39,922 bases of DNA from an uncultured bacterium (GTDB lineage: Bacteria; Patescibacteriota; Minisyncoccia; Phycocordibacterales; UBA918), in NCBI GenBank assembly GCA_913046815.1, contig CAJWTE010000002.1:1-39922 (forward strand), given 5' to 3'. The notes under the pieces are model-generated. The model had not been told where the DNA came from, made no database searches, and worked only from the letters and a program-made list of their open reading frames with translations. Position 1 is the first letter of the stretch; each line of letters starts with the position of its first letter. Made by a program: the position numbers and the translations under genes. This document shows, one piece after another, positions 4,690 to 36,566 of the stretch.

Positions 4690-4710
4690 TAGTATTTCAA
4701 GCAAGACAAA

Positions 4711-4740
4711 AAGAACCTCTGGGTCAACCCAGAGGTTCTT
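4711..4740. terminator. bidirectional intrinsic terminator between convergent recR and rplU
   Basis: Perfect 13-bp stem AAGAACCTCTGGG / CCCAGAGGTTCTT with loop TCAA, flanked by an A-run upstream and TTTATT downstream. Confidence 0.75.
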
Positions 4741-4773
4741 TATTGGATACTACTTTCTACTTTACCCGTTGGT

Positions 4774-11468: not shown

Positions 11469-11504
11469 AAATACCCATTTAAATGGTGATTTAAATGGGT
11501 ATTT
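11469..11504. repeat. perfect 15-bp inverted repeat (AT-rich hairpin) downstream of truB
   Basis: AAATACCCATTTAAA (11469-11483), 6-nt spacer, TTTAAATGGGTATTT (11490-11504). Possible truB terminator or protein-binding palindrome. Confidence 0.55.
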
Positions 11505-17329: not shown

Positions 17330-19177
17330 ATGGCTACCACAAAAAGAAAAACTAAAAAGGATATTAAAGATACCCAGAGAATTAAAGTTCAAATAAACTC
17401 CCCTCGGAAAAAGGCATTGCGAGTGGCTAAGAAGGCGACCCAAAAAGTCAAAACCGTCCCCAGAAAGGAAGTGCTCCCTATCCTAAAGAGAGACGCGCTT
17501 GGTCACCTACTAGTTGAAAACCTTCTTCGCGAAGCCGGCTTTCGAGGGGATATATCCACTGATAAAGATAAATTAGACGAATATAGCTACGATGAAAGTA
17601 TTTTTGCTGTTCGGCCACAGATCGTAATCGCACCTAAAGACGGTATGGACGTACAGTCCGCAGTAAAAGTTATCGCGAAAGAAACTACTCGCTTCCCCGC
17701 GCTTTCCCTCACACCCAGAGCTGCTGGTACTGGTCTATCGGGCGGATCTCTAACAGACTCAGTGGTGATTGATATAAGCAGGTATATGCACAAGATGGAT
17801 TTGGCTGAGGAGATGCGCGGACAAGTCACCATCACTGTGGAGCCAGGTGTAATGTGGCGAGACATGGAAACAGAACTAAAGAAGCATCGCGTCTATGTAC
17901 CTTCTTATACCGCTTCCAAGGATATCTGCTCTGTTGGCGGCTCTGTTGCCAACAATGCCGCCGGCCCCGATTCCCTTCGCTATGGTCATTGTGCCGACTG
18001 GGTTGAATCGCTGGAAGTAGTTTTGTACGATGGAGAAAAGTACACCATCCGGCCAATCGACTATAAGAATTTCAAAGTACTCAGTAAAAAGAAAAACGCC
18101 TATGGGCGCATACTGAGCGAGATTTTTGCTCTTATCGAAGCCAACGAGCCTGCCATACTAAAGGCTAAACCCAAAACCAAGAAGAATACCTCCGGCTATG
18201 CTCTATGGGACGCAATCGACGGAAGTGTAGCCGAATTCAAGGCTGGCAAGGCTAAACTTGACCTTACTCGCCTTATTTCTGGTAGCCAAGGCACTATCGG
18301 CATAGTTACGTCATTAACACTAAAGACAGCTCCGATTCCTACCCATAATCGATTGGTGGTTATTCCAATATTTGATCTTGCTACAGCTAGTGCCGCAGTC
18401 CTAGAGGCACTCAACCATAACCCTGTAAATATAGAAGTATTTGACGCCCTGTCCTTTAACTTAGCACTTAAGAATCCTCAATTTTTTAAGTCTCGGCTAT
18501 CCGGTATCGGGTACTACAGGACAATGCTAGCCATGTACTCCCTTTACCATGTGCGTTGGCTAGGAAAGACTCCTGAGTTCACTCTCTTAATGACTTTTGA
18601 AGATAAGTCCGATACAGTACTGAGTGATATTCTACGTCTACTAAGAAAAGTTGGCGCCAGTGGTGCCAGAGAGGTTACCAATGAAGACGAGAAGGAAATG
18701 CTTTGGCAAGTGCGCAGAGCCAGCTATACACTTTCCAAACTACAAGACCCGAATAAGCGACCAGCAGCCTTTTTGGAGGATATGACAGTACCTCCAGAGC
18801 ACCTGTCTGGCTTTTTGGCGGAGATAAAGCGTTTACTAAGAAAGTACAACCTAACCGCTGCTATACATGGCCATGGTGGTAATGGTCATTTTCACTTTTA
18901 TCCCCTACTCGATTTTGAAAAATCCGGCACAGCCGAGCTGATAGAGAAAATGTCTACTGAATTTTTCCACACTGCAGTGAAATACAAAGGCAATATCTGT
19001 GGCGAGCACAATGATGGCATCACTCGCACTCCCTACCTCAATCTCATGTTCACCAAGAAAATGTTGGATATTTTCAAGCAAGTCGAACATAGCTTTGATC
19101 CTGATGACATCTTCAATCCCGGCAAAAAAGTAAATCCTCGCTTCGATATCAAGTCAAATTTACGCAAAAAGAACTGA
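17330..19177 (+). CDS. FAD-binding oxidoreductase (PCMH-type, GlcD/D-lactate dehydrogenase-like)
   Basis: 615 aa. Basic N-terminal extension, FAD_binding_4-like PRAAGTGLSGGS, and a C-terminal HGHGGNGHFHF / GEHNDG motif typical of the family. Confidence 0.85.
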   Translation: MATTKRKTKKDIKDTQRIKVQINSPRKKALRVAKKATQKVKTVPRKEVLPILKRDALGHLLVENLLREAGFRGDISTDKDKLDEYSYDESIFAVRPQIVIAPKDGMDVQSAVKVIAKETTRFPALSLTPRAAGTGLSGGSLTDSVVIDISRYMHKMDLAEEMRGQVTITVEPGVMWRDMETELKKHRVYVPSYTASKDICSVGGSVANNAAGPDSLRYGHCADWVESLEVVLYDGEKYTIRPIDYKNFKVLSKKKNAYGRILSEIFALIEANEPAILKAKPKTKKNTSGYALWDAIDGSVAEFKAGKAKLDLTRLISGSQGTIGIVTSLTLKTAPIPTHNRLVVIPIFDLATASAAVLEALNHNPVNIEVFDALSFNLALKNPQFFKSRLSGIGYYRTMLAMYSLYHVRWLGKTPEFTLLMTFEDKSDTVLSDILRLLRKVGASGAREVTNEDEKEMLWQVRRASYTLSKLQDPNKRPAAFLEDMTVPPEHLSGFLAEIKRLLRKYNLTAAIHGHGGNGHFHFYPLLDFEKSGTAELIEKMSTEFFHTAVKYKGNICGEHNDGITRTPYLNLMFTKKMLDIFKQVEHSFDPDDIFNPGKKVNPRFDIKSNLRKKN

Positions 19178-19192
19178 CAAACTATATTTACA

Positions 19193-19510
19193 ATGATATC
19201 ATTCTTACAGAGTCACAGAGTCAACACTGAAAGGAATTTCATCATGCTCATGAAAAGCGACCGAGATGCGTTGTGTGAAGTGCTGACACACTTCGTCAAC
19301 CACCGACACGAAGACTGTTCTCGGGAGACAGTCGATTTTGATCAACGCTTTCGAGGACAGGAAGAAAATGTAGCCAACCACATATTGGAAAAGTGGTCGG
19401 ACCTGGTGCATCTGGGTCATGGGTTCTACGATCTCAAGACTGAGATATGGAGTGACGTCCATGTGTTCATCCGCAAAGACGACCAGAAGACATTTCTGGA
19501 AATATCGTAA
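19193..19510 (+). CDS. hypothetical small protein (probable start 19244, 88 aa)
   Basis: AAGGA lies 8 nt before the ATG at 19244. GC-richer than the flanks. No motif recognised. Confidence 0.5.
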   Translation: MISFLQSHRVNTERNFIMLMKSDRDALCEVLTHFVNHRHEDCSRETVDFDQRFRGQEENVANHILEKWSDLVHLGHGFYDLKTEIWSDVHVFIRKDDQKTFLEIS

Positions 19511-19592
19511 GACCGCCAAGCAAAAAGCTCGCTCGTGATATCGAGTATTCGCTTCATTTGTTTGTGCGGGCTTTTTGTATAAACACGCCGGA

Positions 19593-19620
19593 GTCTACCT
19601 ATCATCAATGATAGGTAGAC
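19593..19620. repeat. perfect 13-bp-arm palindrome
   Basis: GTCTACCTATCAT (19593-19605), CA, ATGATAGGTAGAC (19608-19620). Confidence 0.6.
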
Positions 19621-19852
19621 GAAATTTTGTACGAGACGGGCTCGGCTCTGTCATTTTGGAGTAATTCGCCCTAACCATTATCAATTGGCTCTAACGAGTA
19701 CGGATGAGTGAGGATGGCTGGGACACATTGTCAGCCACATAGATCGTGATCTAATAGCCAAACAACACAAGCAACTGTTGCTGGTCCTCTTATGGATGCC
19801 GTTTCTCTTTTATCAAATTCACAAAGGCCCCGCCGCAGCGGAGCCTATACCT

Positions 19853-20242
19853 TCAAATGTACATACTGTGTTCTAACTTATATCCAACTCCCCAAACCGA
19901 ACAAATTGGATCTGCTCCGATCTGAGGTTGCAGCGCGCGTCTGGTTTTTCTTACTAGGTCATGTGCCATTTTGTTTGCCACTGCTTGATCTGCGCATCTA
20001 TAATCCCGATTCTGCACATTCGCGCTGCATAAACTGTTGAAGGAAACGACATTGCCAGGATGTCTGGCAAGAAGACACATGACCCTGAAAGGGTGTTTGG
20101 AAAGGTGGATTAACTTCCCGTCTAACTTAGCAAGATAGACTAAATTGTTTCCATTATCAAACACAAAAACCATTCCGCACGTCTCAACCAATCGCTCTCC
20201 AGGAGAAAGAGAGTCGCCCGGATAAGTATCTCGATACATCAT
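19853..20242 (-). CDS. stand-alone OmpR/PhoB-type winged-helix DNA-binding protein (no receiver domain)
   Basis: 129 aa. LSKHPFRVMCLLARHPGNVVSFNSL ... VANKMAHDLVRKTRRAL ... VWGVGYKLE matches the trans_reg_C pattern. Very strong SD AGGAGGAGG lies 4 nt upstream. Confidence 0.75.
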   Translation of the reverse strand: MMYRDTYPGDSLSPGERLVETCGMVFVFDNGNNLVYLAKLDGKLIHLSKHPFRVMCLLARHPGNVVSFNSLCSANVQNRDYRCADQAVANKMAHDLVRKTRRALQPQIGADPICSVWGVGYKLEHSMYI

Positions 20243-20356
20243 TTTGCCTCCTCCTAATTGTACTCATTCGGAATTACTCTACAATCTTACTCAAACATGG
20301 TCAATATCTTTGTCTTTCTGGTATTATTTGCTAGTATTTGCGCACAATGAGTGTTG

Positions 20357-20427
20357 GCCCTATCGTCTAACGGCTAGGACACATGGTTCTCATCCATGAA
20401 ACCGGGGTTCGATTCCCCGTAGGGTCA
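20357..20427 (+). tRNA. tRNA-Glu (anticodon CUC)
   Basis: Manual cloverleaf. Acceptor GGCCCTA/TAGGGTC (one G-U pair), D arm GTCT..GGAC, anticodon stem CATGG/CCATG with loop TTCTCAT, T arm CGGGG-TTCGATT-CCCCG, discriminator A. The variable loop is short (AAC). No encoded CCA; CAA follows. Confidence 0.8.
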
Positions 20428-21944
20428 CAAAACGAGACTTCGTCTCGACTGAGCGAGCGCGTCGAAGACGCGCGAGATGAGGCAAGAGGAAAACGGGCTT
20501 TGCCCTGCAACACAAAACCAAAGGGTGACGAGACGGAGAAGCGCGCGGTTTTGTCACGAACCGAAGGGTTCGTTCCGACTTTTTTGACGAAAGCGGCGAT
20601 TTCGGAGAAATCATCGCTGGAGGATAAAAAGGTGGCTTGTTTCGTATCTAAAATCCACTCACGCAGGGGTTCGACCCAATTATTTCCTTGGTGGGCAAAA
20701 TCTTTCTTTTTCTCCTTTAAAGTCAGGGTGGCACGCATGATTTCGTCTTTCTTTTTAAGGTACAAGTCTTTCGGTATATCGCCATCCAAATAACTCTCCA
20801 CCAGTTTGTCCATGCGTGCTTCACTGGCTTTGATACTATCTGAAAGATTTTGTACACCACTTTGCGATGCGGTATTTTCTGCTTTCTCCCATTCCTCCAC
20901 TTTACCGAGCATGTATGCGGTATACGCATCGCAAAGCGAAATTGTTTGAAGCTGTGTCTTTAGTTGGTCGGCGAGAACGTCCTCGCGCACATATCCTTGG
21001 GAGCATGACCCTTTCTTTTTCGTACACCGATAGTACCTATATCTTCCCCCATGCCTTCCAGTTGCCCACTGAGCGGTAATCATAGAGTCACACTCTCCGC
21101 AACGAAAAAGATTGGTGAACGGAAAGTTATGACCAAGCCTTGTTTTTCTCGGCCGAGCGTTAGCCGACAAAACAACTTGTACGGCTTCAAACAATTTCGG
21201 GGAAAGTATTGGTGCAAAGCTTCCGTCAAACCATTCGTCTTTATGTTTGGTAAATCCGAGATAGGCTCGATTAGTTAGGATTCGTTTAACGGAAGCTTTG
21301 CCAAGTGGCGTACCTGCCTTTGTAGTGAGTCCAAGATCAAATAGAAAATGTGAAAGCGAGACAAGTCCATGCGTACCCTTTGCATACTCCTCATAAGCGC
21401 GCACAATAATCTGGCTATGCACTGGATGTGGCTCTATCACTTTCTTTGCCTTATTATTTACATAGCCAAAAGGAGCGCGCGTCAGCCACTCACCACGGCG
21501 TAGCTTTGCCCGCATACCTCGCTTCACATTTTGGGTTAAATTGTCCGAATAATACTTAGACTGACCAAAAGCCACTTGAAGCATGAACAACCCCTGCGGA
21601 GTGGGTTCAAACCAAAATGTCGGAAAGCGCAAAGACACTATTTTCTTTTGATCTACCGCGTAGATAACCTGCCCTCCATCTATACTATTACGTGCCAGTC
21701 TATCTGGATGCCACGCTAAAACACCAAACCCTTCCAAAGAGTTAATCTGCTCCATCATTTTATTAAAAACTGGTCTCCCGGGTGTCTTTGCGCTTTTTGA
21801 CTCTTGAAACTCCGTTAGGATTTCAAGATTTTCTTTACGCGCAAACTCTCGCATTTCAAAAAGCTGTGACTCAATAGACATGACTTGCTTATCGTCATCT
21901 TCGGTACTTTTGCGAGCGTATAGAAAATATTTTGGTTTGTTCAT
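20367..21944 (-). CDS. large serine recombinase (integrase type)
   Basis: 525 aa. Resolvase-type N-terminus YARKSTEDDDKQVMSIESQ, recombinase domain, zinc ribbon CGECDSMITAQ...YYRC, then a coiled-coil-like region. The last ~63 codons are encoded by antisense R1a and antisense tRNA-Glu, so the true C-terminus is uncertain. Confidence 0.9.
   Translation of the reverse strand: MNKPKYFLYARKSTEDDDKQVMSIESQLFEMREFARKENLEILTEFQESKSAKTPGRPVFNKMMEQINSLEGFGVLAWHPDRLARNSIDGGQVIYAVDQKKIVSLRFPTFWFEPTPQGLFMLQVAFGQSKYYSDNLTQNVKRGMRAKLRRGEWLTRAPFGYVNNKAKKVIEPHPVHSQIIVRAYEEYAKGTHGLVSLSHFLFDLGLTTKAGTPLGKASVKRILTNRAYLGFTKHKDEWFDGSFAPILSPKLFEAVQVVLSANARPRKTRLGHNFPFTNLFRCGECDSMITAQWATGRHGGRYRYYRCTKKKGSCSQGYVREDVLADQLKTQLQTISLCDAYTAYMLGKVEEWEKAENTASQSGVQNLSDSIKASEARMDKLVESYLDGDIPKDLYLKKKDEIMRATLTLKEKKKDFAHQGNNWVEPLREWILDTKQATFLSSSDDFSEIAAFVKKVGTNPSVRDKTARFSVSSPFGFVLQGKARFPLASSRASSTRSLSRDEVSFCDPTGNRTPVSWMRTMCPSR
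20412..20428. repeat. attL core (direct repeat copy 1, inside tRNA-Glu T arm/acceptor)
   Basis: ATTCCCCGTAGGGTCAC, identical to 27830-27846. Confidence 0.8.
20425..20553 (+). repeat. repeat R1a (129 bp, hairpin-rich), directly after tRNA-Glu
   Basis: Aligns without gaps to the reverse complement of 21985-22113, with 12 mismatches by manual alignment. Contains hairpins GAGAC-TTC-GTCTC, GCGCGTC-GAA-GACGCGC, GGGC-TTT-GCCC and CAAAACC...GGTTTTG. Confidence 0.9.
20553..20586 (+). terminator. intrinsic terminator-like hairpin plus T6 following R1a (antisense to the recombinase ORF)
   Basis: GTC-ACGAACC-GAAG-GGTTCGT-TCC-GAC, followed by TTTTTT (20580-20585). Confidence 0.5.
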
Positions 21945-21984
21945 AATTTTGGAAAAATTATATTTTTAGACATGAAACAAGAGG

Positions 21985-22183
21985 CAAAACCGCGCACTTT
22001 TCCGTCCCGTCACCCTTTGGTTTTGTGTTGCAGAGCAAAGCCCGTTTTCCTCTTGCTTCATCTCGCGCGCCTTCGGCGCGCTCGTTATCTAGAGACGAAG
22101 TCTCGTTTTGTGAAGAAATACTAACCCGCGCTCGAACTTACTTTGAACAGAACTAGCAACGCGCGGAGCGCGTGGTAGCTTTG
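21985..22183 (-). repeat. repeat R1b (21985-22113) plus X module (to 22183), forming the upstream/leader region of the recombinase gene
   Basis: R1b is the inverted copy of R1a. 22092-22183 is the inverted copy of 27395-27486, with 6 mismatches in 92 bp by manual alignment. Confidence 0.9.
22118..22147 (-). promoter_or_regulatory. promoter-like element inside X, pointing into R1b and the recombinase gene
   Basis: On the minus strand: TTCAAA (22147-22142), 18-nt spacer, TAGTAT (22123-22118). The same arrangement is conserved in the X copy at 27431-27460. Confidence 0.4.
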
Positions 22184-22263
22184 TACTTGAACGTACGCAT
22201 TCGCGTGCGTGGTGACGCTAAACAAGCGCCTCGGGGCGCGTTCGTCACCTCGCGCAGCAACCT

Positions 22264-22349
22264 CCAAAAATTTCCTTACCATTTCTAAAAAGCGGAAGGG
22301 GGTGCAGGGGGAAGCCGCCAAAAAGTTGAAAGGAAATTTTGGGGTTGCT
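22264..22349. repeat. repeat R2a (86 bp), perfect inverted copy of 24757-24842
   Basis: The manual reverse complement of 22264-22349 equals 24757-24842 at all 86 positions. Contains GGAAGGGGGTGCAGGGGGAAG. Confidence 0.95.
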
Positions 22350-22396
22350 AGTTTGCTTTACCTGTTCATTCTTCTTTCTCTAACGGCTGCCCTAGT

Positions 22397-22464
22397 GTAA
22401 CCAACCCGAATAACTCGAATCGCTAAGACAGCCATTAGAAAAAGCTATTCGGAAAGTTGGTTAC
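22397..22464. other. long two-tier hairpin (9-bp and 7-bp stems)
   Basis: GTAACCAAC-CCGAATA ... TATTCGG-AAA-GTTGGTTAC. Non-coding stretch between R2a and the terminators of the 306-aa ORF. Confidence 0.55.
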
Positions 22465-22484
22465 AAGTTCAGTATAGCATAATG

Positions 22485-22538
22485 AAAAACCGCTACGTGA
22501 TTTAGCGTAGCGGAAGGGTGGCGGCGTATCCGCCACCC
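22485..22538 (-). terminator. tandem terminator hairpins of the 306-aa ORF
   Basis: Read on the minus strand: GGGTGGCGG-ATACG-CCGCCACCC, then CCGCTACG-loop-CGTAGCGG followed by TTTTT. Confidence 0.75.
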
Positions 22539-22550
22539 TAGCAATTTCAA

Positions 22551-23471
22551 TCAGGAATCACGATGAGCCGCCGGACACGCGGCCTTGCATTCATCCTCGT
22601 TCCTGTAACAGTCCCAGAGTTGTCTCGGATGTTCATCCTCGAAGTGTGCAAAACTGTTTTCAATCTTGAGCACCTTTCTTGATATCGGGAAATATTGGTT
22701 GTTGAAGTCCCGATCATAAGAGTGAGAATGGTACACAACCCAGACCTTTTCGCCAGGCTTCACCCAGGAGATTGTCCTAAGTCTTTGTCCGAGAGCACTG
22801 TATTCTGTCTCTGCTCGCCCGAGCTTGCCCATGAGATCTTCGACCATCGTTTCGGCTGCAGCATAGAGTCGCTCAACAATTCCACGAAGCAGATACGAAC
22901 CGTTTTCCTTGTCCTGAAAACACCACTCGACGACCTTGAAGAGACTGACCTCAGAAACCTTGAGGTGTTCTTTAGTATCGTCGCTCCGTCTGTAAACCGT
23001 GTTGGTGAGTGACCCTGGAATAGCCGGATGTTTCCGTTTCTCCAGAAGCCATACGGTGTTCAGAATACAGAAGCGACCACCTCTATCAAGCAGAAGATGT
23101 TCACACGGTATCTCCTCCGGATAGCTGGCGTGGCCTTGAGCCATACTCTTGAAGCTTGACGGAAAGCTGTGACGCACTCCGCAGACGAGGAAGTCATGTC
23201 CCCAGCTAAACTCGCGCGATGCGCCAACATCGCCGAACCAGATTCTTGACGGAGGGCTTGAGTTGTATAGGCTCACGCCGTCATCCTCGGGAATGTCGAT
23301 TACTGGTACAAGTGTCGCCGGTTTGAATCCGTGAAGAAATTTTGGATTCACGATCTTCAGAGTTGATTTTATGATCTCCATCCAATCCCCAAAGGGAATT
23401 GCCTTGGGGTCAAGTACCTCACGACCTTCGAAAAAAGCAATTGTGTGTTCAGCATCCCTGACCGTAGCCAT
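22551..23471 (-). CDS. hypothetical protein, 306 aa, no recognisable family
   Basis: Long GC-rich ORF with SD AGAGAGG 8 nt upstream and its own terminators. No motif I can name. Confidence 0.7.
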   Translation of the reverse strand: MATVRDAEHTIAFFEGREVLDPKAIPFGDWMEIIKSTLKIVNPKFLHGFKPATLVPVIDIPEDDGVSLYNSSPPSRIWFGDVGASREFSWGHDFLVCGVRHSFPSSFKSMAQGHASYPEEIPCEHLLLDRGGRFCILNTVWLLEKRKHPAIPGSLTNTVYRRSDDTKEHLKVSEVSLFKVVEWCFQDKENGSYLLRGIVERLYAAAETMVEDLMGKLGRAETEYSALGQRLRTISWVKPGEKVWVVYHSHSYDRDFNNQYFPISRKVLKIENSFAHFEDEHPRQLWDCYRNEDECKAACPAAHRDS

Positions 23472-23649
23472 GTCGGATTCCTCTCTCTTTCAAATAGCAC
23501 TCCTGACCGTAGTCATGTCGAGCGCTGGTTGCTGTTATGGAACTCCTGTTCCGTTGCTACAGTGCTTTAAAATAGTGGTTTTGTCAACTAATCAACAGGC
23601 AGCTGTAAAAAGTTATAATTTGAACACAAATTTTGTTATACTAAGAATA

Positions 23650-24117
23650 ATGACCAAGAAAGCGACATACAGCGCTGATAATGTCGCCAAGTATCTTATT
23701 TACCTTGCCTCTCAAGAACTTGTCGGTGATAATCAAGAACGTGAAGGGATAACAAACCTTAAGTTACAAAAGGTGCTGTATTTTGTGCAAGCTTATTATC
23801 TTGCAAAATTGGGACATCCGTTGTTTTCAGACAAAATTGAAGCTTGGGAGTATGGACCTGTGATTCCAACTGTGTACAGAAAGTACAGAGCCAACGTTAG
23901 CAACCCAATAATTTTGGATGAAGATAAATCCACTCTTTCTGAGGAGGATAAAAAGAATGTACAAAAAATTTGGGAAACTTTTGGTGGTTACTCAGCTAGT
24001 CGTTTGGTAGATATTACTCATGCACATTCACCTTGGAAAGATGCCAGTCAAACTGCCAGTAAAGTTATTACAGCGAAGTCGCTAAGAGAATATTACACTC
24101 CTTTGCTAAACAAATAG
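23650..24117 (+). CDS. Panacea-domain (DUF4065, SocA/GepA-like) antitoxin-type protein
   Basis: 155 aa from the ATG at 23650; the ORF-track start at 23371 is an extension through the divergent promoter region. ITNLKLQKVLYFVQAYYLAKLGHPLFSDKIEAWEYGPVIPTVY and GGYSASRLVDITHAHSPW match the DUF4065 pattern. Confidence 0.8.
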   Translation: MTKKATYSADNVAKYLIYLASQELVGDNQEREGITNLKLQKVLYFVQAYYLAKLGHPLFSDKIEAWEYGPVIPTVYRKYRANVSNPIILDEDKSTLSEEDKKNVQKIWETFGGYSASRLVDITHAHSPWKDASQTASKVITAKSLREYYTPLLNK

Positions 24118-24130
24118 GCAAGGTTAATCC

Positions 24131-24532
24131 TTGTTTATGGACGGTCTAGATATTCCGACAAAATTTGATCTTGGGTACGCTGAGTCAAATGTGTGCTTTT
24201 CGATTACTGATTGTTCATTGAAGAAGTACTCGTTCTGGTGTTTGAACAAACAACAAGCAGAAACTTTGCTAAAACGATTGAAGCATATTGAAAAACTCAC
24301 ATGGAGCCAGTTCATAAATCTATCTAGACAAGACGGAGTCACGCCTGAAAAGAATGATACACCCAACTTTATAATGATCCATGAAGAAAATACCTCGCCC
24401 GACAAAATGGTTGAACAATATTATTTTCATTTCCGCATTGAGAAGAGAGGATTATTTCGTGTCTTCGGGTATCAGAAGAAACAATTCTTTTGTATAACTC
24501 ATATTGATCCGAATGGAAAAATAAACCACTAA
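24131..24532 (+). CDS. hypothetical protein, 133 aa; candidate toxin partner of the Panacea protein
   Basis: Starts 13 nt after the Panacea gene (TTG at 24131 or ATG at 24137). C-terminal RGLFRVFGYQKKQFFCITHIDPNGKINH is loosely reminiscent of RelE/ParE-superfamily C-termini, but no firm family assignment is possible. Confidence 0.6.
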   Translation: MFMDGLDIPTKFDLGYAESNVCFSITDCSLKKYSFWCLNKQQAETLLKRLKHIEKLTWSQFINLSRQDGVTPEKNDTPNFIMIHEENTSPDKMVEQYYFHFRIEKRGLFRVFGYQKKQFFCITHIDPNGKINH

Positions 24533-24559
24533 AATTAACAAAGTTACTAAGCTCACCTA

Positions 24560-24704
24560 ACAGCACCGCAGCAGCTCGCGCGAACGAATGTGAGCGAGCT
24601 ATGCGAAGGTGCTGTAGGCGTGAGCATGTATAGCGTACCACCTGCTCTGTATACGCGACAGCGCCTCGGGTGCCACCAGTCTGGAGAAAGTGATGAACAA
24701 AGCC
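24560..24704 (+). repeat. repeat Y, copy B (about 145 bp), direct copy of 27249-27401
   Basis: About 80 percent identity by eye with one ~9-nt indel. Nested stems are conserved in both copies: CAGCACC/GGTGCTG and AGCTCGC/GCGAGCT. Followed by hairpin AGCCCCT-loop-AGGGGCT (24701-24723). Confidence 0.8.
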
Positions 24705-24756
24705 CCTACTTCTTAAAGGGGCTTTGTGAAGAACTTTTGGAAGACTGGGAGGCAAA

Positions 24757-24842
24757 AGCAACCCCAAAATTTCCTTTCAACTTTTTGGCGGCTTCCCCCT
24801 GCACCCCCTTCCGCTTTTTAGAAATGGTAAGGAAATTTTTGG
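24757..24842. repeat. repeat R2b (86 bp), perfect inverted copy of 22264-22349
   Basis: See R2a. Confidence 0.95.
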
Positions 24843-24845
24843 GTA

Positions 24846-24927
24846 TTGCGAGTTTGCCGACCCCACTTATTATAATATATCACACTATATCAATGTAACA
24901 CATGAATGGTTAGAATGTTGATATAGT
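24846..24927 (+). promoter_or_regulatory. putative promoter and operator of the XRE gene
   Basis: TTGCGA (24846-24851) with TATTAT at 16 nt or TATAAT (24871-24876) at 19 nt. 10-bp inverted repeat ACTATATCAA (24884-24893) / TTGATATAGT (24918-24927) ends at the ATG. Confidence 0.4.
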
Positions 24928-25137
24928 ATGAATAGCAAGGCAGTTAAACAGTTCGCTTCGAACATGAAGCAAGTGCGTGAAGCGAAGAAAATGTCGCAAG
25001 GTGACATTTTCAGAGTGACAGGTATCGAAAGAGCGTATATCAGTAACCTCGAAGCTGGCAAACAAAATCCAACGTTAGAAACGATCGAAAAGATAGCACA
25101 AGCGTTGGGTGTTGAAGTTAGTGAATTAACAAAGTAA
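24928..25137 (+). CDS. XRE-family (Cro/CI-type) HTH transcriptional regulator
   Basis: 69 aa. MSQGDIFRVTGIERAYISNLEAGKQNPTLETIEKIAQALGV is a textbook HTH_3 pattern. Confidence 0.88.
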   Translation: MNSKAVKQFASNMKQVREAKKMSQGDIFRVTGIERAYISNLEAGKQNPTLETIEKIAQALGVEVSELTK

Positions 25138-25139
25138 GT

Positions 25140-26216
25140 ATGCCAAAAGGATTTGAATCAGCGTCAGCACACCCATCGCCACAAAAAATTGAAGGCGAGG
25201 ACGTGAGCAAAGTGACTGCCTCTGAAGAACGACCAACGTTTGATGAATTCGAAGGTGGCGAATTGGATGAGCGAGGCGAATTCAAAGAGCCTACCCCGGA
25301 GGAGCAAGAAAAGTTTCGTGACAGAGTTGCTCGTATGTCAGAGGTTCTTGAGGACGCGGACTTTACCTGGTATCTCGATGGAGCAACGAACATATCTTTG
25401 TATGGCGACCAAATGATACGAAACCATAAGGATTTAGACATGAGTGTGTTTCAAGAAGATCTTGGTAAATTAGAGGACCTGCTCAACAATCAAGGATTCG
25501 GAATTTTTGTTAACTACAAGGAAGATAGGAAAGAACTGATGCGAAAAGTGACTGCACAAGAATTAGGTTTACTTGAAAATCCAGACGTGTCGATTTGTAA
25601 AGTTGGACCAGACGGAACCCTTAGTTCAAAAAATTCGCACGAGGCTTTTGATTTTGTCGACTTACATATACGGGACATAGATGAATTTGGTGATGTTGTC
25701 GTTGGTTACAGTGGTATTTCTATACCTAAAGAATATTTTGAGCCGATAAGGAAAGAACTTCCAAACGGAAAAATAATCAGCCTTTCCCACCCTGCCGTTG
25801 TTGCCTACCACAAACTACACTCAACACGTGCATATGACGTAAAAGATTTGCAAATACTTTCACCCCTGCTCACACAAGAAGATATTGCAATGTTGCGGTC
25901 AAGCGTCGAGAAAGAAGCTGGGGTGTTAGATAAAAGGACACGTGAGGTATTAAAGGAAGTTTGGGGTGAATTGTCGCCTGTTCTAGAGACAGCACCTGAC
26001 CCAGATACAATTGCAGAGAAACTGCGGTCGCATCCTGAGATTGGAAAAAGAAATACTGACGAATCTGTTGCTAATTACATTTCATCAATTTCACAATATT
26101 TGTCCGAAAACCCTAGTGTAACTGCTGATGATTTCATCAGTCAGTCAATATCAATATTAAACATTAAAAAGCGAGCGGAAGAGCAGATAAAATTGATTGA
26201 TCAACTGGAGCAGTGA
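25140..26216 (+). CDS. nucleotidyltransferase-fold protein (Lnu/ANT(2'')-like core) with acidic N-terminal and helical C-terminal extensions
   Basis: 358 aa; starts 2 nt after the XRE stop. FTWYLDGATNISLYGDQMIRNHKDLDMSVF (G-x-D-x-D NTase motif), VDLHIRDIDEFGDVV and LSHPAVVAYHKLHSTRAYDVKDLQIL parallel the lincosamide nucleotidyltransferase LnuA layout as I recall it. Confidence 0.65.
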   Translation: MPKGFESASAHPSPQKIEGEDVSKVTASEERPTFDEFEGGELDERGEFKEPTPEEQEKFRDRVARMSEVLEDADFTWYLDGATNISLYGDQMIRNHKDLDMSVFQEDLGKLEDLLNNQGFGIFVNYKEDRKELMRKVTAQELGLLENPDVSICKVGPDGTLSSKNSHEAFDFVDLHIRDIDEFGDVVVGYSGISIPKEYFEPIRKELPNGKIISLSHPAVVAYHKLHSTRAYDVKDLQILSPLLTQEDIAMLRSSVEKEAGVLDKRTREVLKEVWGELSPVLETAPDPDTIAEKLRSHPEIGKRNTDESVANYISSISQYLSENPSVTADDFISQSISILNIKKRAEEQIKLIDQLEQ

Positions 26217-26235
26217 AGCCTTAAAATTTTTGAGT

Positions 26236-26264
26236 TTGACAACTAAGTATATCTATGCTATTCT
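26236..26264 (+). promoter_or_regulatory. sigma70-type promoter for the GC-rich patch sORF
   Basis: TTGACA (26236-26241), 17-nt spacer, TATTCT (26259-26264). Confidence 0.5.
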
Positions 26265-26307
26265 TTGTTTAGCTTAAACGCAGGTTTTTCCTGCACGTTC
26301 CGCCTAT

Positions 26308-27183
26308 TTAGGCACAACTCGATGGAGGAATCCAATATGCATGGTTATGTGAGACCGATGGGTAGGGCTGCATGGCGCGACCCGGTTCAGACGAGGAGTC
26401 TGTATCTCCTCGGCCCCGAGAGCTTTGACACCGTCCAGGTGCACGAGCTCGACGAGGACGGCAAGTCCGTCCGTGAATACCAGCACATCCGCCATGATCG
26501 TGTCGGAGACTGCTGGGCGGCTGAAGCCTGGCGACATCATCTTGGTAGATGAGCTTGCCGGCGACTGCTTCTACAACTTGTGTTGCTCGGAACAAATTTG
26601 CAGCTAACTCCTCGCTATTCATGTGATCTAGAATCTGTTGAGATTTCTTCAAGCTTTTTCTGCGGTGAATATCTTGACTCGTAAGTCCGCCATACAGGCC
26701 CTTATACCCAGCATTTTGGAAAATGGCGTAATTTTGCACGCCAGCACTCTTAGCGGTTTTTGTAAGGTTAGTATTATGCTTCTTCATTTCTTCCCTTAAA
26801 AATACACGCTTATTATCCTCAACTAAATTTTCAGTTTTTTCTTGCCTTCGTGTCTGTATCGCAAAGTATGTCTGTCCCTTTGCTACCACAACTTTTGTTG
26901 GGTCTGAATTTTGAACAATAAGATAACAGGCATATCTTGATAGATAGACAGTTTCAACAGACCTTTCTGCACCGGAACCCGTTTTAACCATTTCGGTGGC
27001 ATCAACGAAATGGTTGTGGATAACTTCTCCGCTGTTTTCACATGCTGTTTTAGCCTTATTTATAGCGGTTAAAAAGTTACGGTAATCTGTATACTCTAGA
27101 GCTTTTGCAAGGTCACGAGATGACCAAAATTCTGAATCATTTTCGTCAAAGCGTCTAATTGTTTCAAACTGATTTTCCTTCAT
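26308..27183 (-). CDS. dinD: DNA damage-inducible protein D (DinD) family; C-terminal ~89 codons non-homologous, likely 3' replacement
   Basis: From MKENQFETIRRF (start 27183 or 27192) to ELAANLFRATQ, the sequence tracks E. coli DinD as I recall it (SRYACYL.VQN.DP, GQTYFAIQTRRQE, FQN.GY.GLYGG, ILDHM.S.ELAANLFRATQ). Downstream of about 26578 the reading becomes an Arg/Pro/Gly-rich tail through the GC-rich patch. Confidence 0.8.
   Translation of the reverse strand: MKENQFETIRRFDENDSEFWSSRDLAKALEYTDYRNFLTAINKAKTACENSGEVIHNHFVDATEMVKTGSGAERSVETVYLSRYACYLIVQNSDPTKVVVAKGQTYFAIQTRRQEKTENLVEDNKRVFLREEMKKHNTNLTKTAKSAGVQNYAIFQNAGYKGLYGGLTSQDIHRRKSLKKSQQILDHMNSEELAANLFRATQVVEAVAGKLIYQDDVARLQPPSSLRHDHGGCAGIHGRTCRPRRARAPGRCQSSRGRGDTDSSSEPGRAMQPYPSVSHNHAYWIPPSSCA
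26337..26552 (+). CDS. hypothetical small protein, 71 aa, in a GC-rich patch
   Basis: SD GGAGG (26324-26328) lies 8 nt before the ATG at 26337, with a promoter upstream. Antisense to the non-homologous tail of the DinD-like ORF, so only one of the two readings can be genuine. Confidence 0.45.
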   Translation: MHGYVRPMGRAAWRDPVQTRSLYLLGPESFDTVQVHELDEDGKSVREYQHIRHDRVGDCWAAEAWRHHLGR

Positions 27184-27248
27184 TTTGACCATTATACTAC
27201 AAAATAAGAACACTGACTTCCTGCTCAAAAACACACCGTTGCGAACCC

Positions 27249-27512
27249 ACAGCACCGTAGCAGCTCGCGCGAACGGGCGTTAGCTCGTGAGCGAGCTGTG
27301 CGGAGGTGCTGGAGGTGAGAGCGTGTTTAGCATTACCACGCGGTTGGTCTACACGTAGCGCCTCGGGCGCCAACAGACTGGAGAAAAGTCTGAACAAAGC
27401 CACCACGCGCTCGGCGCGTTGCTAGTTCTGTTCAAAATAAGTTCGAGTAAGGGTTAGTATTTCTTCACAAAACGAGACTTCGTCTCTATTGAGCGGGCGC
27501 GCCGAGCGCGCT
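27249..27512 (+). repeat. composite repeat Y-X-R1c (copy C)
   Basis: Y 27249-27401 is a direct copy of 24560-24704. X 27395-27486 is an inverted copy of 22092-22183. From 27465 a partial R1 copy follows (hairpin GAGAC-TTC-GTCTC, then GCGCGC-CGA-GCGCGC). The promoter-like TTCAAA-18-TAGTAT lies at 27431-27460. Confidence 0.85.
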
Positions 27513-27563
27513 GCAATCATTGTCTTTTCTCAAAGTGGGTTCGAGCGAGGGTAAGTATTTCTT

Positions 27564-27611
27564 CACGAGTACAGAAAACAGCACCTGTCAAAGGTGCGTT
27601 TTCTGTTCGTG
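27564..27611 (+). other. long hairpin preceded by a second X-like box
   Basis: CACGA-GT-ACAGAAAAC-A-GCACC-TGTCAAA-GGTGC-GTTTTCTGT-TCGTG. Preceded by GGGTTCGAGCGAGGGTAAGTATTTCTTCAC (27537-27566), a degenerate copy of the X 3' end. Confidence 0.55.
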
Positions 27612-27780
27612 GCTCTACGAGTAACAGTGCTAGCACCATAGAGAGTACTTCGATATTCATGGATGCTTCGCTTCTTAAAAATATGGTCGCTCACTGTTAC
27701 GTGAAAAACGAACCGGCGTAGCTATGTATTTTATTCTTTTCCTAGAACAAAGTACGGACGAGGTGTGTTCCGCGGCACTT

Positions 27781-28945: not shown

Positions 28946-28983
28946 AAATATACACGCATGCATTAATGCATGCGTGTATATTT
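28946..28983. terminator. perfect 38-bp palindrome (19-bp arms) between the FN3-like gene and ddl
   Basis: AAATATACACGCATGCATT | AATGCATGCGTGTATATTT. Likely a terminator/attenuator between the two minus-strand genes. Confidence 0.65.
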
Positions 28984-34827: not shown

Positions 34828-34863
34828 GCACACAAAAATCACCTAGCGGTGATTTTTGTGTGC
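34828..34863. terminator. perfect 16-bp-stem hairpin between lysS and the mraZ promoter
   Basis: GCACACAAAAATCACC-TAGC-GGTGATTTTTGTGTGC. Confidence 0.6.
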
Positions 34864-36526: not shown

Positions 36527-36566
36527 GACATAAGCCGCGCAACACTCGTGTTGCGCGGCTTATGTC
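36527..36566 (-). terminator. perfect 18-bp-stem hairpin after greA
   Basis: GACATAAGCCGCGCAACA-CTCG-TGTTGCGCGGCTTATGTC, 10 nt downstream of the greA stop. Confidence 0.7.

Follow-up and report, generated by a model that had tools for sequence, protein, structure and literature searches.

The window, that is, the whole 39,922-nt stretch of DNA analysed here, contains a tRNA-Glu(CTC) gene at 20356–20428 (plus strand; ARAGORN and Rfam) and a 525-codon ORF encoding a large serine recombinase (LSR) at 20367–21944 (minus strand). The LSR carries the Pfam domains Resolvase, Recombinase, and Zn_ribbon_recom and distantly matches SPbeta integrase structures (E 6e-11). In alignments with homologues, conservation extends to around codon 470, after which the ORF continues through a repeat (R1a, see below) into the tRNA gene. 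Two cargo modules follow, each encoding three proteins on mixed strands. Module 1 (22551–24532; gene calls and Pfam) comprises a 306-aa protein with no family match (22551–23471, minus strand), a SocA/Panacea-domain protein (23515–24117, plus strand; Pfam), and a 131-aa protein (24137–24532, plus strand); PADLOC gave no match on this module. Module 2 (24928–27213; Pfam and PADLOC) comprises an Xre/C-protein-like HTH protein (24928–25137, plus strand; PADLOC control protein, E 5e-16), a nucleotidyltransferase (25140–26216, plus strand), and a Bro-N protein (26308–27213, minus strand) matching the candidate defence family PDC-S13 (PADLOC, E 1.5e-88).

A sequence-only reading of this DNA had described three related non-coding blocks (A, B, and C) beside these modules. 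BLAST of the window against itself recovered all three where they had been placed, with repeats far beyond chance (E 1e-24 to 1e-37). X together with the first 47 nt of R1 forms an inverted pair (27394–27511 vs 22184–22067; 118 nt, 89%, E 7.5e-32); the inversion was thus correctly described, although the figure of 6 mismatches in 92 bp for X was slightly optimistic. Y is, as had been seen, a direct repeat in B and C (27249–27406 vs 24560–24709; 159 columns, E 1.5e-24), and its identity, put at about 80 percent, was 75.5% including gaps and 82–86% in sub-blocks without gaps. The nested stems CAGCACC/GGTGCTG and AGCTCGC/GCGAGCT are present, and the patchy similarity of block A to 22263 corresponds to a shorter Y variant (Y', 22185–22256). 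Two repeats had been missed. One is a third, full copy of R1 (20425–20553), which begins within the last 4 nt of tRNA-Glu(CTC) and is inverted relative to 21985–22113 (129 nt, 90.7%, E 1.9e-37), so that the recombinase gene is bracketed by inverted repeats. The other is Z, an inverted pair of 100 nt (22257–22356 vs 24752–24849; 95%, E 3.9e-30), which with Y of block B brackets module 1. A partial fourth X was found at 27530–27566, where a profile match spans 27506–27568; the rest of the window contained no further copies of X, Y, Z, or R1.

It is likely that 20429–27468 is an integrated LSR mobile element at the 3' end of tRNA-Glu(CTC) and that the blocks are attachment-site arms. The 4-nt core TCAC forms the last 4 nt of the tRNA gene (20425–20428) and recurs at 22110–22113, 27465–27468, and 27563–27566. 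Site S1 (tRNA 3' end·TCAC·R1a) would be attL, joining the B arm, that is, the T arm and acceptor strand in the 3' part of the tRNA, to the P' arm R1a (20425–20553, plus strand). The recombinase ORF overlaps R1a with its 3' end, and the first hairpin of R1a (20447–20433) is terminator-like on the recombinase strand. Site S2 (X·TCAC·R1b) would be a complete attP-like copy, inverted, inside the element between recombinase and cargo; its core reads GTGA on the plus strand. The P' arm of S2, R1b (21985–22113, minus strand), is on the same strand as the recombinase gene and precedes the start codon of that gene by 40 nt; its role was assigned from the self-BLAST and from junction tables of 17 related loci. 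The P arm of S2 is block A without R1 (22114–22356, minus strand; profile match 22281–22107, E 9.5e-41), consisting of X (22114–22184, with the GTTCGAGC motif and a 23-nt conserved box at 22160–22182), Y', and, at the inner end, Za (22257–22356); Z is similar to the arms of many related loci. Site S3 (Xc·TCAC·trailer) would be attR, joining P arm and B' arm. Its P arm, block C without R1 (27249–27468, plus strand; profile match 27288–27471, E 2.3e-22), consists of Y_long (27249–27395) and the 23-nt box (27396–27418), with an AAAGCC microhomology at their fusion point, followed by X to the end of the core at 27468. The inverted orientation of S2 places R1 on both sides of the recombinase gene as an inverted repeat (IR-1, with R1a as distal and R1b as proximal arm) and, likewise, the P arm (X, Y, Z) on both sides of the cargo (IR-2, with blocks A and C as proximal and distal arms). 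R1b is also complementary to R1a, which sits at the 3' end of the recombinase mRNA.

What had been taken as a unit, Y-X-R1, is therefore better divided into P arm (Y, X), 4-nt core, and P' arm (R1) of a serine-integrase site, and the blocks are probably arms of three copies of one such site rather than cassette borders. The view that they are recombinase-associated and mark boundaries of mobile DNA held, and arm ends coincided with element boundaries in locus comparisons. The segment formerly called R1c (27469–27511, plus strand; approximately 43 nt, 90% like the start of R1a) most plausibly represents either the trailer native to tRNA-Glu (B' arm) or the beginning of R1 from an older element. 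The repeat match begins 4 nt earlier, at the core (27465), 27465–27505 matches 20425–20465 directly in the self-BLAST, and a locus without recombinase (L062) has a similar 37-nt trailer after tRNA-Glu(CTC). X_d (27506–27568, plus strand) corresponds to the last 60 nt (3' end) of a further P arm, closes with TCAC, and was left by an older integration; beyond it come unrelated flank and a bidirectional terminator (27581–27597).

In 17 loci tabulated, the junctions were tRNA·core·r, b·core·r, and b·core·flank, and the core was the last nucleotides of the tRNA. The end of the P arm would imitate the target tRNA in its T arm and acceptor strand. The distance from the junction to GTTCG is greater in the element arm than in the tRNA, by 5 bp in 19 loci and 6 bp in 8 loci, counts for which four mis-picked motifs were corrected by eye. 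In studied serine integrases, the zinc-ribbon domain tells attP from attB by such an offset, the ZD motif occupying positions 16–24 in attP and 11–19 in attB (Rutherford et al. 2013, PMC3783163). Judged from the sequences, the 5–6-bp offset is this published attP-versus-attB geometry. The LSR would cut within TCAC, and excision would yield a circle with two inverted attP copies. An excised circle, empty site, or junction read was sought for this island and none was found; all contigs with the neighbouring genes carry it.

To place the island among its relatives, we used 80 metagenome loci, fetched by LSR homology alone, and Patescibacteria genomes. IR-1 was present around the LSR in 60 of 68 evaluable loci (median 114 nt, 99% identity), and a convergent tRNA gene lay just after the LSR in 46 of 59. 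The target tRNA (Glu, Arg, Ser, Pro, Leu, Asn, Trp, Phe, Ala, Val, Gly, Gln, or Asp) varied by LSR lineage. A second repeat pair brackets 0.6–6 kb of unrelated, defence-rich cargo; in L023, L038, and L021, for example, a 95–131-nt pair surrounds the LSR and/or a 226–257-nt, 100%-identical pair surrounds the cargo. The full Z-Y-X block was found in only a few of the 80 loci, most of which retain the X end alone. In two MAGs (L057 and L065), 6.5 kb is common at 99.94%, and the outer end of the distal arm is precisely where homology stops. Another locus (L106), circular at first look, was not cleanly circular on examination. These results indicate that the element belongs to a large island family of Patescibacteria (candidate phyla radiation) with defence genes as cargo, of which no description was found in the literature. 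Close relatives were rare in a viral collection (5 of 55 matches at at least 33% identity), and no conserved directionality factor was found. The window arms are unusually diverged (X 89%, Y 75%, vs 94–100% in most relatives), and given this divergence the window copy may be decaying.

IR-1 and IR-2 could instead be the terminal inverted repeats of two independent units, R1-LSR-R1' being a minimal insertion sequence that goes in between a tRNA gene and an already present block, and block-cargo-block a separate foldback element. One locus has R1-LSR-R1' alone between two convergent tRNA-Leu genes (L102, tRNA-Leu·r-LSR-r'·tRNA-Leu), and two others (L036 and L029) are block-cargo-block with no LSR detected within the locus. 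However, target-site duplications are absent, S1 and S2 carry the core in inverted rather than direct orientation, and the same core occurs in both supposed units. These abut in 21 of 49 loci, mostly with a 2–13-nt overlap. The arms abutting a convergent tRNA fit attR sites flanked by a neighbouring tRNA, and L102 is also consistent with a double event in which two inverted attP copies recombined with two convergent tRNAs. We thus consider two separate units very unlikely.

On the single-element reading, the cargo is free to vary, is mostly defence-related, and would pass from one element to another through recombination in the conserved arms. A Nomurabacteria chromosome (L023) has a syntenic FAD-oxidase/tRNA-Glu locus whose recombinase and arms are 81–88% identical to those of the window; tRNA, LSR, and arms are common to both, and its cargo, a beta-helix/PKD protein, is unlike that of the window. 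Conversely, module 1 recurs at 99.4% identity between the same arms but with another chromosomal flank (L004). Across loci, the cargo includes type II and III restriction-modification, OLD-family ATPase-nuclease, AbiU2, Shedu SduA, and RhuM, and 57 of 79 cargo proteins were singletons. The search for X, Y, Z, and R1 flanking different cargo, which the sequence-only reading had proposed, was therefore positive.

That reading had loosely likened the blocks to integron attC sites. In an integron-like array, each module would end in its own attC analogue and the serine recombinase would insert and excise cassettes singly. Blocks do lie at the ends of both window modules and are hairpin-rich, cargo varies among related loci, and module 1 occurs in a second context. 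However, relatives have exactly two nested inverted pairs whether they carry one or five cargo genes, and neighbouring cargo genes have no site between them. The repeats of each pair are inverted rather than direct, the enzyme is an LSR and not, like IntI, a tyrosine recombinase, and inversion of a contiguous arm accounts for block B (see below). We regard such an array as highly improbable. Since cargo turns over between homologous arms, the idea of cassette exchange was partly right; it was the integron-like array that failed. Its alternative suggestion, tandem accretion followed by rearrangement, came closer, in view of the older arm remnant at 27506–27568 and the tandem accretion seen directly in L090.

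Block B (24560–24849, plus strand) consists of Y_long (24560–24709), a hairpin (24699–24725), and Zb (24752–24849). Since Y_long-hairpin-Z-Y'-X is one contiguous arm in three other genomes (L058, L046, and L029), Y and Z appear from this arrangement to be inner extensions of the P arm. Block B would have belonged to the proximal arm as its inner half until an inversion, running from the Z of that arm to a second Z copy in opposite orientation, split the extended arm and displaced block B from Za-Y'-X.

The window arrangement must thus stem from an inversion through Z, which raises the question of whether the recombinase flips LSR and cargo segments as a phase-variation switch, as in a shufflon or Gin/Hin-like system. 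The geometry is that of such systems, beside a serine recombinase. In contig L006, 22264–24717 is inverted with 100% identity on both sides, four assemblies break within Z, and L075 has a flipped recombinase segment (tRNA-Ser·core·r, then a co-directional LSR). On the other hand, free switching should give a mixture of orientations, whereas in 21 of 22 loci the cargo is directed away from the LSR, and nearly every LSR gene runs convergently to its tRNA. The inversion alters no obvious promoter–gene connection, and ordinary homologous recombination could produce it between the Z copies. The join in L006 lies within a 93-nt repeat, and its source MAG was presumably built by contig merging, so a mis-join is possible. 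A dedicated switch is accordingly quite unlikely. Two identical attP copies likewise predict both LSR/cargo orientations; as nearly only one was seen, either selection favours one form or integration does not use S2.

The P arm (80–330 nt, hairpin-rich, with the 23-nt box conserved across classes) is far longer than any known LSR site needs, so that part of it must do something else. The Z-Y-X block could be primarily a structured RNA (a recombinase leader, cargo 3' UTR, or tRNA-like RNA), with recombination only at its very end. The 23-nt box occurs in 57 genome stretches, almost all labelled candidate phyla radiation (including Paceibacteria, Saccharibacteria, Kaiserbacteria, and Nomurabacteria), and the LSRs adjoining 11 of them range down to 34% identity with the window LSR; its conservation is partly ascertainment, because the box was the search pattern. 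Hairpins of variable sequence are inserted at one fixed position, Y stems show compensatory changes between strains, and Y folds much better than shuffled sequences (z = -7.2 for 24555–24760; z = -7.4 for another strain's variant). The block has the same orientation as the recombinase gene and, at the distal end, as the cargo. However, Rfam had no matching family even at E up to 5, double changes affect just 4 of 35 predicted Y pairs, mostly from one sequence, and sense and antisense folding energies are alike (30/51, p = 0.085). A primarily RNA function is rather doubtful, though it could be compatible with the attachment-site explanation.

The island shares with serine-integrase systems (Listeria A118/LI integrase, phiC31, and SPbeta) the Resolvase, Recombinase, and zinc-ribbon enzyme class, hybrid ends with only a short core in common, a recombinase gene beside one end, and a distal recognition motif that in the element site is set outward by approximately 5 bp relative to the host site (PMC3783163). 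Unlike their 40–50-bp sites, however, the island arms are 60–330 nt and hairpin-rich, a complete inverted attP copy is kept inside the element, and the element lacks phage, conjugation, and replication genes. The island family also differs in targeting the 3' ends of many different tRNA genes, which are the usual targets of tyrosine integrases.

Tycheposons of marine Prochlorococcus are similarly small, cargo-bearing integrative elements beside tRNA genes in streamlined marine genomes, with defence and niche cargo and accretion beside the tRNA, but in a different host phylum. According to Hackl et al. (bioRxiv 10.1101/2020.12.28.424599), tycheposons mostly have tyrosine recombinases, 27 of 937 have large serine recombinases, and many have replication modules; a term search of the text turned up neither a nested inverted-repeat architecture nor an internal attP copy.

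With integron attC sites the island shares structured, imperfectly palindromic sites beside variable cargo and turnover at a recombinase-linked locus. Integrons, however, use the tyrosine recombinase IntI on one attC per cassette, in direct order and recombined as folded single strands, whereas the island has two nested inverted pairs per element regardless of gene number and a serine recombinase. CTXphi also carries its attachment site twice, inverted, inside a mobile element; its two dif-like copies are approximately 90 nt apart and function only as folded single-stranded DNA with the tyrosine recombinases XerCD, whereas the island copies are at least 1.5 kb apart and the enzyme makes double-strand breaks.

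The res site of Tn3/gamma-delta, like S2, lies between a recombinase gene and divergently transcribed neighbours. It has three subsites, serves a small resolvase in resolving cointegrates, and is also the operator between the divergent tnpA and tnpR. S2 would by analogy serve as operator or leader of the LSR gene, and its position suggests that recombinase binding could be autoregulatory; it differs in being associated with an LSR and in being a second, internal copy of the integration site. Finally, two inverted recombinase sites split a circle into two segments in the yeast 2-micron plasmid and in phiC31 cassette exchange. The 2-micron system uses a tyrosine recombinase for copy-number amplification, whereas no replication function was seen in the island. 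Cassette exchange is a laboratory design, unlike the island, but double recombination with two inverted partner sites swaps a segment there, and L102 resembles such a product.

Self-comparison of the window recovered every repeat that the sequence-only reading had listed. X together with the start of R1 gave an inverted match of 118 nt (27394-27511 versus 22184-22067; 89% identity; E = 7.5e-32), and Y gave a direct match (27249-27406 versus 24560-24709; 75.5% over 159 columns; E = 1.5e-24). A third full copy of R1, absent from that reading, was found at 20425-20553, inverted relative to the copy at 21985-22113 (129 nt, 90.7%, E = 1.9e-37) and starting within the final 4 nt of tRNA-Glu(CTC) (20356-20428). 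In addition, a 100-nt inverted pair, Z, surrounds cargo module 1 (22257-22356 versus 24752-24849; 95%), and a partial copy of X lies at 27530-27566. No further copies of X, Y, Z, or R1 were detected in the rest of the window, which is a scaffold of a TARA Oceans marine metagenome.

The island gene order starts with the tRNA-Glu gene on the plus strand, followed by the large serine recombinase (LSR) ORF of 525 codons (20367-21944, minus strand), a 306-aa protein (minus), a SocA/Panacea-domain protein (plus), a 131-aa protein (plus), an Xre-type HTH protein and a nucleotidyltransferase (both plus), a Bro-N protein (minus), and the chromosomal ddl gene (minus); domains were assigned with Pfam. 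PADLOC assigned the HTH protein as a control protein and the Bro-N protein to the candidate defence family PDC-S13 (E = 1.5e-88). In module 1 (22551-24532), the 306-aa gene is divergent from the neighbouring Panacea-domain (SocA-like antitoxin) gene, after which comes the 131-aa gene. The 306-aa and 131-aa proteins had no match in Pfam or PADLOC, and the three genes may make up a trio with a toxin-antitoxin or defence role, the toxin being of an undescribed kind. The flanks of the island contain perfect or near-perfect intergenic palindromes of 32-40 nt (4710-4741, 11469-11504, 28946-28983, 34828-34863, and 36527-36566), including a perfect 38-nt palindrome between ddl and the next gene (28946-28983); these are probably bidirectional terminators.

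Three sites in the window share the core TCAC, namely tRNA·TCAC·R1a (S1), inverted X·TCAC·R1b (S2), and X·TCAC·flank (S3), and thus the island has the hybrid ends of LSR elements. S1 reads ...GGGGTTCGATTCCCCGTAGGGTCAC followed by AAAACGAGAC..., S2 (minus strand) reads ...AAGTTCGAGCGCGGGTTAGTATTTCTTCAC followed by AAAACGAGAC..., and S3 reads ...AAGTTCGAGTAAGGGTTAGTATTTCTTCAC followed by AAAACGAGAC...; an extra site copy ending at 27566 reads ...GGGTTCGAGCGAGGGTAAGTATTTCTTCAC followed by GAGTACAG.... With b denoting the P arm (X, Y, and Z) and r the P' arm (R1), the 17 tabulated loci contained the junction types tRNA 3' end·core·r, b·core·r (internal and inverted), and b·core·flank, with the core consisting of the final 2-13 nt of the tRNA. 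S1 would correspond to attL and S3 to attR, and S2 would be a complete attP-like copy held inverted between the LSR and the cargo. In this model, b·core·r is a single long inverted repeat, and integration would split one of its two copies; this would explain why the LSR pair invariably abuts the cargo pair and has the core in common with it. Excision would give the attB junction ...CCCCGTAGGGTCAC followed by AAAACGAGACTTCGTCTCTATTGAGCGGG (20428 to 27469) and the circle junction ...GGTTAGTATTTCTTCAC followed by AAAACGAGACTTCGTCTCGACTGAGCGAGC (27468 to 20429). An insertion sequence or transposon with terminal inverted repeats was rejected: there was no direct target-site duplication, and TCAC (20425-20428) and GTGA (22110-22113) belong to the inverted repeat. 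L106 was considered as a circular form, as its ends seemed to wrap, and was discarded on finding that its ORF is not continuous across the ends.

The end of the b arm is similar to the T arm and acceptor strand of the tRNA. GTTCG lies farther from the junction in the b arm than in the tRNA by 5 bp in 19 loci, 6 bp in eight loci including the window, and 7 bp in one locus; four values of -2 in this tally arose from a second TTCG being picked up. For A118-family integrases, attP half-sites have the zinc-ribbon motif at positions 16-24 and attB half-sites have it at 11-19, a 5-bp shift (Rutherford et al. 2013, PMC3783163). By analogy, this rule predicts the GTTCG offset if b is the P arm and the tRNA is the B arm, and GTTCG may be the contact of the zinc-ribbon domain (ZD). 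Integrase specificity seems to be divided, with one part in a T-loop motif universal to tRNAs and the other in a short core specific to the tRNA, a split that is attractive for engineering.

The R1-like sequence of 47 nt following Xc, the X copy of block C, is probably the native tRNA trailer (B'), because it resembles the 37-nt trailer of tRNA-Glu(CTC) in L062, a locus without an LSR. L062 itself, with tRNA-Glu and this R1-like trailer, is a possible empty site; in the neighbour look-up, every contig with the exact proteins of both flanking genes was occupied by the island. The partial X at 27506-27568 is probably the remnant of an older integration.

The 525-aa LSR ORF contains the Pfam domains Resolvase, Recombinase, and Zn_ribbon_recom (PF00239, E = 3.6e-22; PF07508; PF13408), that is, the N-terminal resolvase catalytic, recombinase, and zinc-ribbon domains of the enzymes of LSR integrative elements, and its residues 8-403 aligned to SPbeta integrase chains (E = 6e-11). 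The ORF overruns the end of family homology, near codon 470, by approximately 60 codons, crossing R1a and entering the tRNA-Glu gene for 60 nt, and the arrangement is the same in L023. The first hairpin of R1a is terminator-like on the LSR strand; this hairpin (20447-20433), followed by TTTTGTGA, precedes the LSR stop codon, and therefore the true C-terminus of the LSR or the end of its mRNA is ambiguous. R1b, located on the LSR strand 40 nt ahead of the LSR start codon, is probably part of the 5' UTR; R1a, at the 3' end of the mRNA, is the complement of R1b.

A 23-nt box at the Y/X boundary, AAAGCYACCACGCGCTCSGCGCG, was found in 57 stretches of the species-representative genome collection, nearly all of them from Patescibacteria of many classes and frequently at contig ends. 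In nine loci, the box formed inverted pairs 1.6-6 kb apart, with the same geometry as blocks A and C in the window. A profile built from the box-bearing copies indicated that Z, Y', and X constitute one block of approximately 180-250 nt, and in 11 loci this block immediately preceded, in the same orientation, an LSR gene whose product was 34-82% identical to that of the window. L023, a complete Nomurabacteria chromosome syntenic with the window (FAD oxidase and tRNA-Glu), has inverted pairs of 131 nt (98%) around the LSR and 226 nt (100%) around the cargo; the pairs of L038 are 95 nt and 250 nt, and that of L021 is 257 nt.

To remove ascertainment by the block, loci were also fetched by LSR homology only. 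The metagenome scan yielded at least 600 stretches, of which 593 among the matches listed encode a relative, and 80 loci were kept. Among the matches listed, 46 of 59 evaluable loci had a convergent tRNA gene at most 300 nt from the 3' end of the LSR gene, the target tRNA tracked the LSR lineage (thirteen isoacceptor types), and 60 of 68 loci had an inverted pair around the LSR (median length 114 nt, with 99% identity). A second pair abutting the first was present, again among the matches listed, in 21 of the 49 loci with at least 600 nt of upstream sequence (median 112 nt, 98.7% identity, spans of 0.6-6.1 kb), its arms mostly overlapping by 2-13 nt. In L067 (7543-9517 and 10214-12960), neighbouring tRNA-Arg and tRNA-Ser genes each have an LSR element, and the two LSRs belong to different lineages (69% and 41% identical to the LSR of the window), and a tandem pair of LSR elements occurs at tRNA-Pro in L090 (217-5408); these tRNA clusters are accretion hot spots. 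In L029 (586-3756), five adjacent paralogous genes with a common conserved 63-nt zinc-ribbon N-terminus (70-78% identity) adjoin a block-cargo-block unit with arms of 631 nt that show 100% identity. Contigs with the Patescibacteria-type block and LSR labelled as Gammaproteobacteria or Rickettsiales MAGs (L026, L030, L051, L057, and L065) are probably mis-binned or mislabelled.

The sequence-only reading had each cargo module end in a structured block that includes Y. In other genomes (L058, L046, and L029), Y_long-hairpin-Z-Y'-X occurs in a constant order on one strand. In the window this arm is split: Za-Y'-X adjoins the LSR, and Y_long-hairpin-Zb lies across module 1 in the opposite orientation. 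Flipping the Z-to-Z segment reproduces the arrangement of L006 (GCA_002708195.1) exactly, in which 22264-24717 is inverted and the join falls inside Z with 100% identity on either side. The contiguous arm is thereby regained, so an inversion through Z took place in the lineage of the window, irrespective of any continued coexistence of both forms. Block C has an internal deletion of the distal arm, with Y_long and the 23-nt box joined at the common AAAGCC. On the contiguous order elsewhere, the Z inversion, and the block C fusion, Y therefore belongs to the arm, and a role as a separate cassette terminator does not hold. A model of blocks B and C by accretion of three elements was dropped because Y_long-hairpin-Z-Y'-X is contiguous in other genomes; one Z inversion and one old remnant supersede it. 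Among further assemblies of the population of the window, which include L006 and L004, L007 has the outer stem of Y, CAGCACC/GGTGCTG, changed to CAGCACACAC/GTGTGTGCTG. Z is the breakpoint of four assemblies and R1b that of one, with contig ends at 22318, 22342, 24783, 24787, and 22092 (JGI 3300020447, GCA_002708195.1, ERZ27286447, and ERZ908593); such breaks would be expected if the repeats or an inversion polymorphism confused the assembly graph.

Two observations bear on a site-specific inversion switch (Hin/Gin or shufflon type): module 1 is inverted in one contig (L006), and several assemblies break in Z. Across the family, 21 of 22 loci had cargo whose transcription leads away from the LSR, and LSR and tRNA were almost always convergent; therefore, the repeats are probably not a freely flipping switch. 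In L075, tRNA-Ser·core·r is followed by a co-directional LSR, and in L102 (7773-9613), the LSR and R1-type arms, with neither block arms nor cargo, lie between convergent tRNA-Leu genes (TAA and CAA). L102 looks like a double-recombination product or a minimal element. These two loci rule out that the LSR never flips and show that the internal site copy can replace the end copy; they fit double recombination between two inverted attP copies and two convergent tRNAs. Blocks abutting a convergent tRNA (L012, L031, L032, L040, and L061) are best read as attR sites flanked by a neighbouring tRNA.

The arms are far longer than LSR sites require. Their palindromic hairpin was invariant across the copies found, these copies having been ascertained with a pattern containing the hairpin, and variable hairpins are inserted at one fixed position of the arm; the arms also contain strongly stable folds. 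Covariation in Y was weak (4 of 35 pairs), RNAalifold on the raw 41-sequence MAFFT alignment returned the invariant hairpin only, and the folding energies of the sense and antisense strands of the block were not significantly different. Rfam 15 covariance models detected only tRNA in the window and 18 related loci, and nothing else at E ≤5 in 20300-27700. A known RNA was rejected, as Rfam searches at gathering and permissive thresholds and the ARAGORN tmRNA search yielded tRNAs only. A housekeeping RNA gene serving as the integration target was likewise rejected: the block adjoins many different tRNAs, occurs in inverted pairs, and co-occurs with the LSR.

The internal inverted attP is a concrete puzzle concerning enzyme control or element movement. 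We prefer the reading that S2 doubles as an operator or leader for the LSR and the divergent cargo, by analogy with res in Tn3. In our estimate, it is improbable that the family works by means of the full inverted attP copy (as opposed to carrying it as a by-product), either through cassette exchange with two convergent tRNAs or through a folded strand forming a duplex attP. If cassette exchange were true, simultaneous recombination with two convergent tRNA genes would deliver the LSR or the cargo segment, for which L102 is suggestive. If the folded-strand version were true, a single strand entering naturally competent hosts would fold, a serine-recombinase counterpart of the folded sites of CTXphi and integrons. 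Under either version, the hairpin-rich long arms would be a functional nucleic-acid structure.

The ORFs between the arms were unrelated in 25 loci, and 57 of 79 proteins were singletons; no conserved small gene accompanies the LSR, and no candidate for a directionality factor was identified. Many cargo genes encode defence functions, including type III Res/Mod, type II TdeIII and ThaI with methylases, OLD-family ATPase-nuclease, AbiU2, Shedu SduA, and RhuM. Further cargo is metabolic or surface-related (GT2, radical SAM, HisG, GH130, beta-helix/PKD, and cytochrome cd1), and no replication, conjugation, or virion genes were seen in the annotated cargo. The cargo turnover sought on the basis of the sequence-only reading was observed. 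L023 and the window have the tRNA, LSR, and arms in common (81-88%) and differ in their cargo. L004 contains module 1 with Za and Y' at 99.4%, and diverges within X at the conserved box; beyond it, the X end and the chromosomal surroundings differ (ClpB and other tRNAs), and there is no recombinase. The elements of L057 and L065, which come from different MAGs, have 6501 nt in common at 99.94% identity, and the homology stops precisely where the distal arm has its outer end. Homology ending at the att sites in L057/L065 and the different flanks of module 1 and its arm in L004 are those of an LSR element. Within 17498-22345 of the window, the tRNA-LSR-arm segment was 81% identical to L023 (CP060229) versus 68-71% for the adjacent FAD-oxidase gene; this higher similarity hints at horizontal spread of, or strong constraint on, the element. 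A phage origin was rejected: the Y and X-R1 patterns were unmatched in viral contigs, only five of which had a relative of at least 33% identity.

The candidate phyla radiation is huge and mostly uncultured, with very few described mobile elements. If our reading is true, it gains a defined and abundant element family (593 confirmed among the matches listed) whose ends can be predicted, whose tRNA targeting follows a clear logic, and whose cargo is mainly anti-phage, and recombinase biology gains numerous natural serine integrases for which the genome sequence directly gives attP and attB. A full-text literature search, of incomplete coverage, yielded no account of the family, of tRNA targeting through a P arm that mimics the T loop, or of an inverted attP copy inside an element. 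The likeness to integron attC arrays proposed in the sequence-only reading does not hold, as the sole recombinase is a serine enzyme rather than an IntI-type tyrosine recombinase, and each element has two nested inverted pairs regardless of the number of cargo genes, in place of one directly oriented attC for every cassette. Tycheposons resemble the island in their ecology and in being tRNA-adjacent cargo elements with a site-specific integrase. They mostly use a tyrosine recombinase and often carry a replication module (primase/helicase) (10.1101/2020.12.28.424599); in contrast, the enzyme of the island is an LSR, and no annotated cargo contains replication genes. The enzyme and site logic of the island are those of serine integrases.
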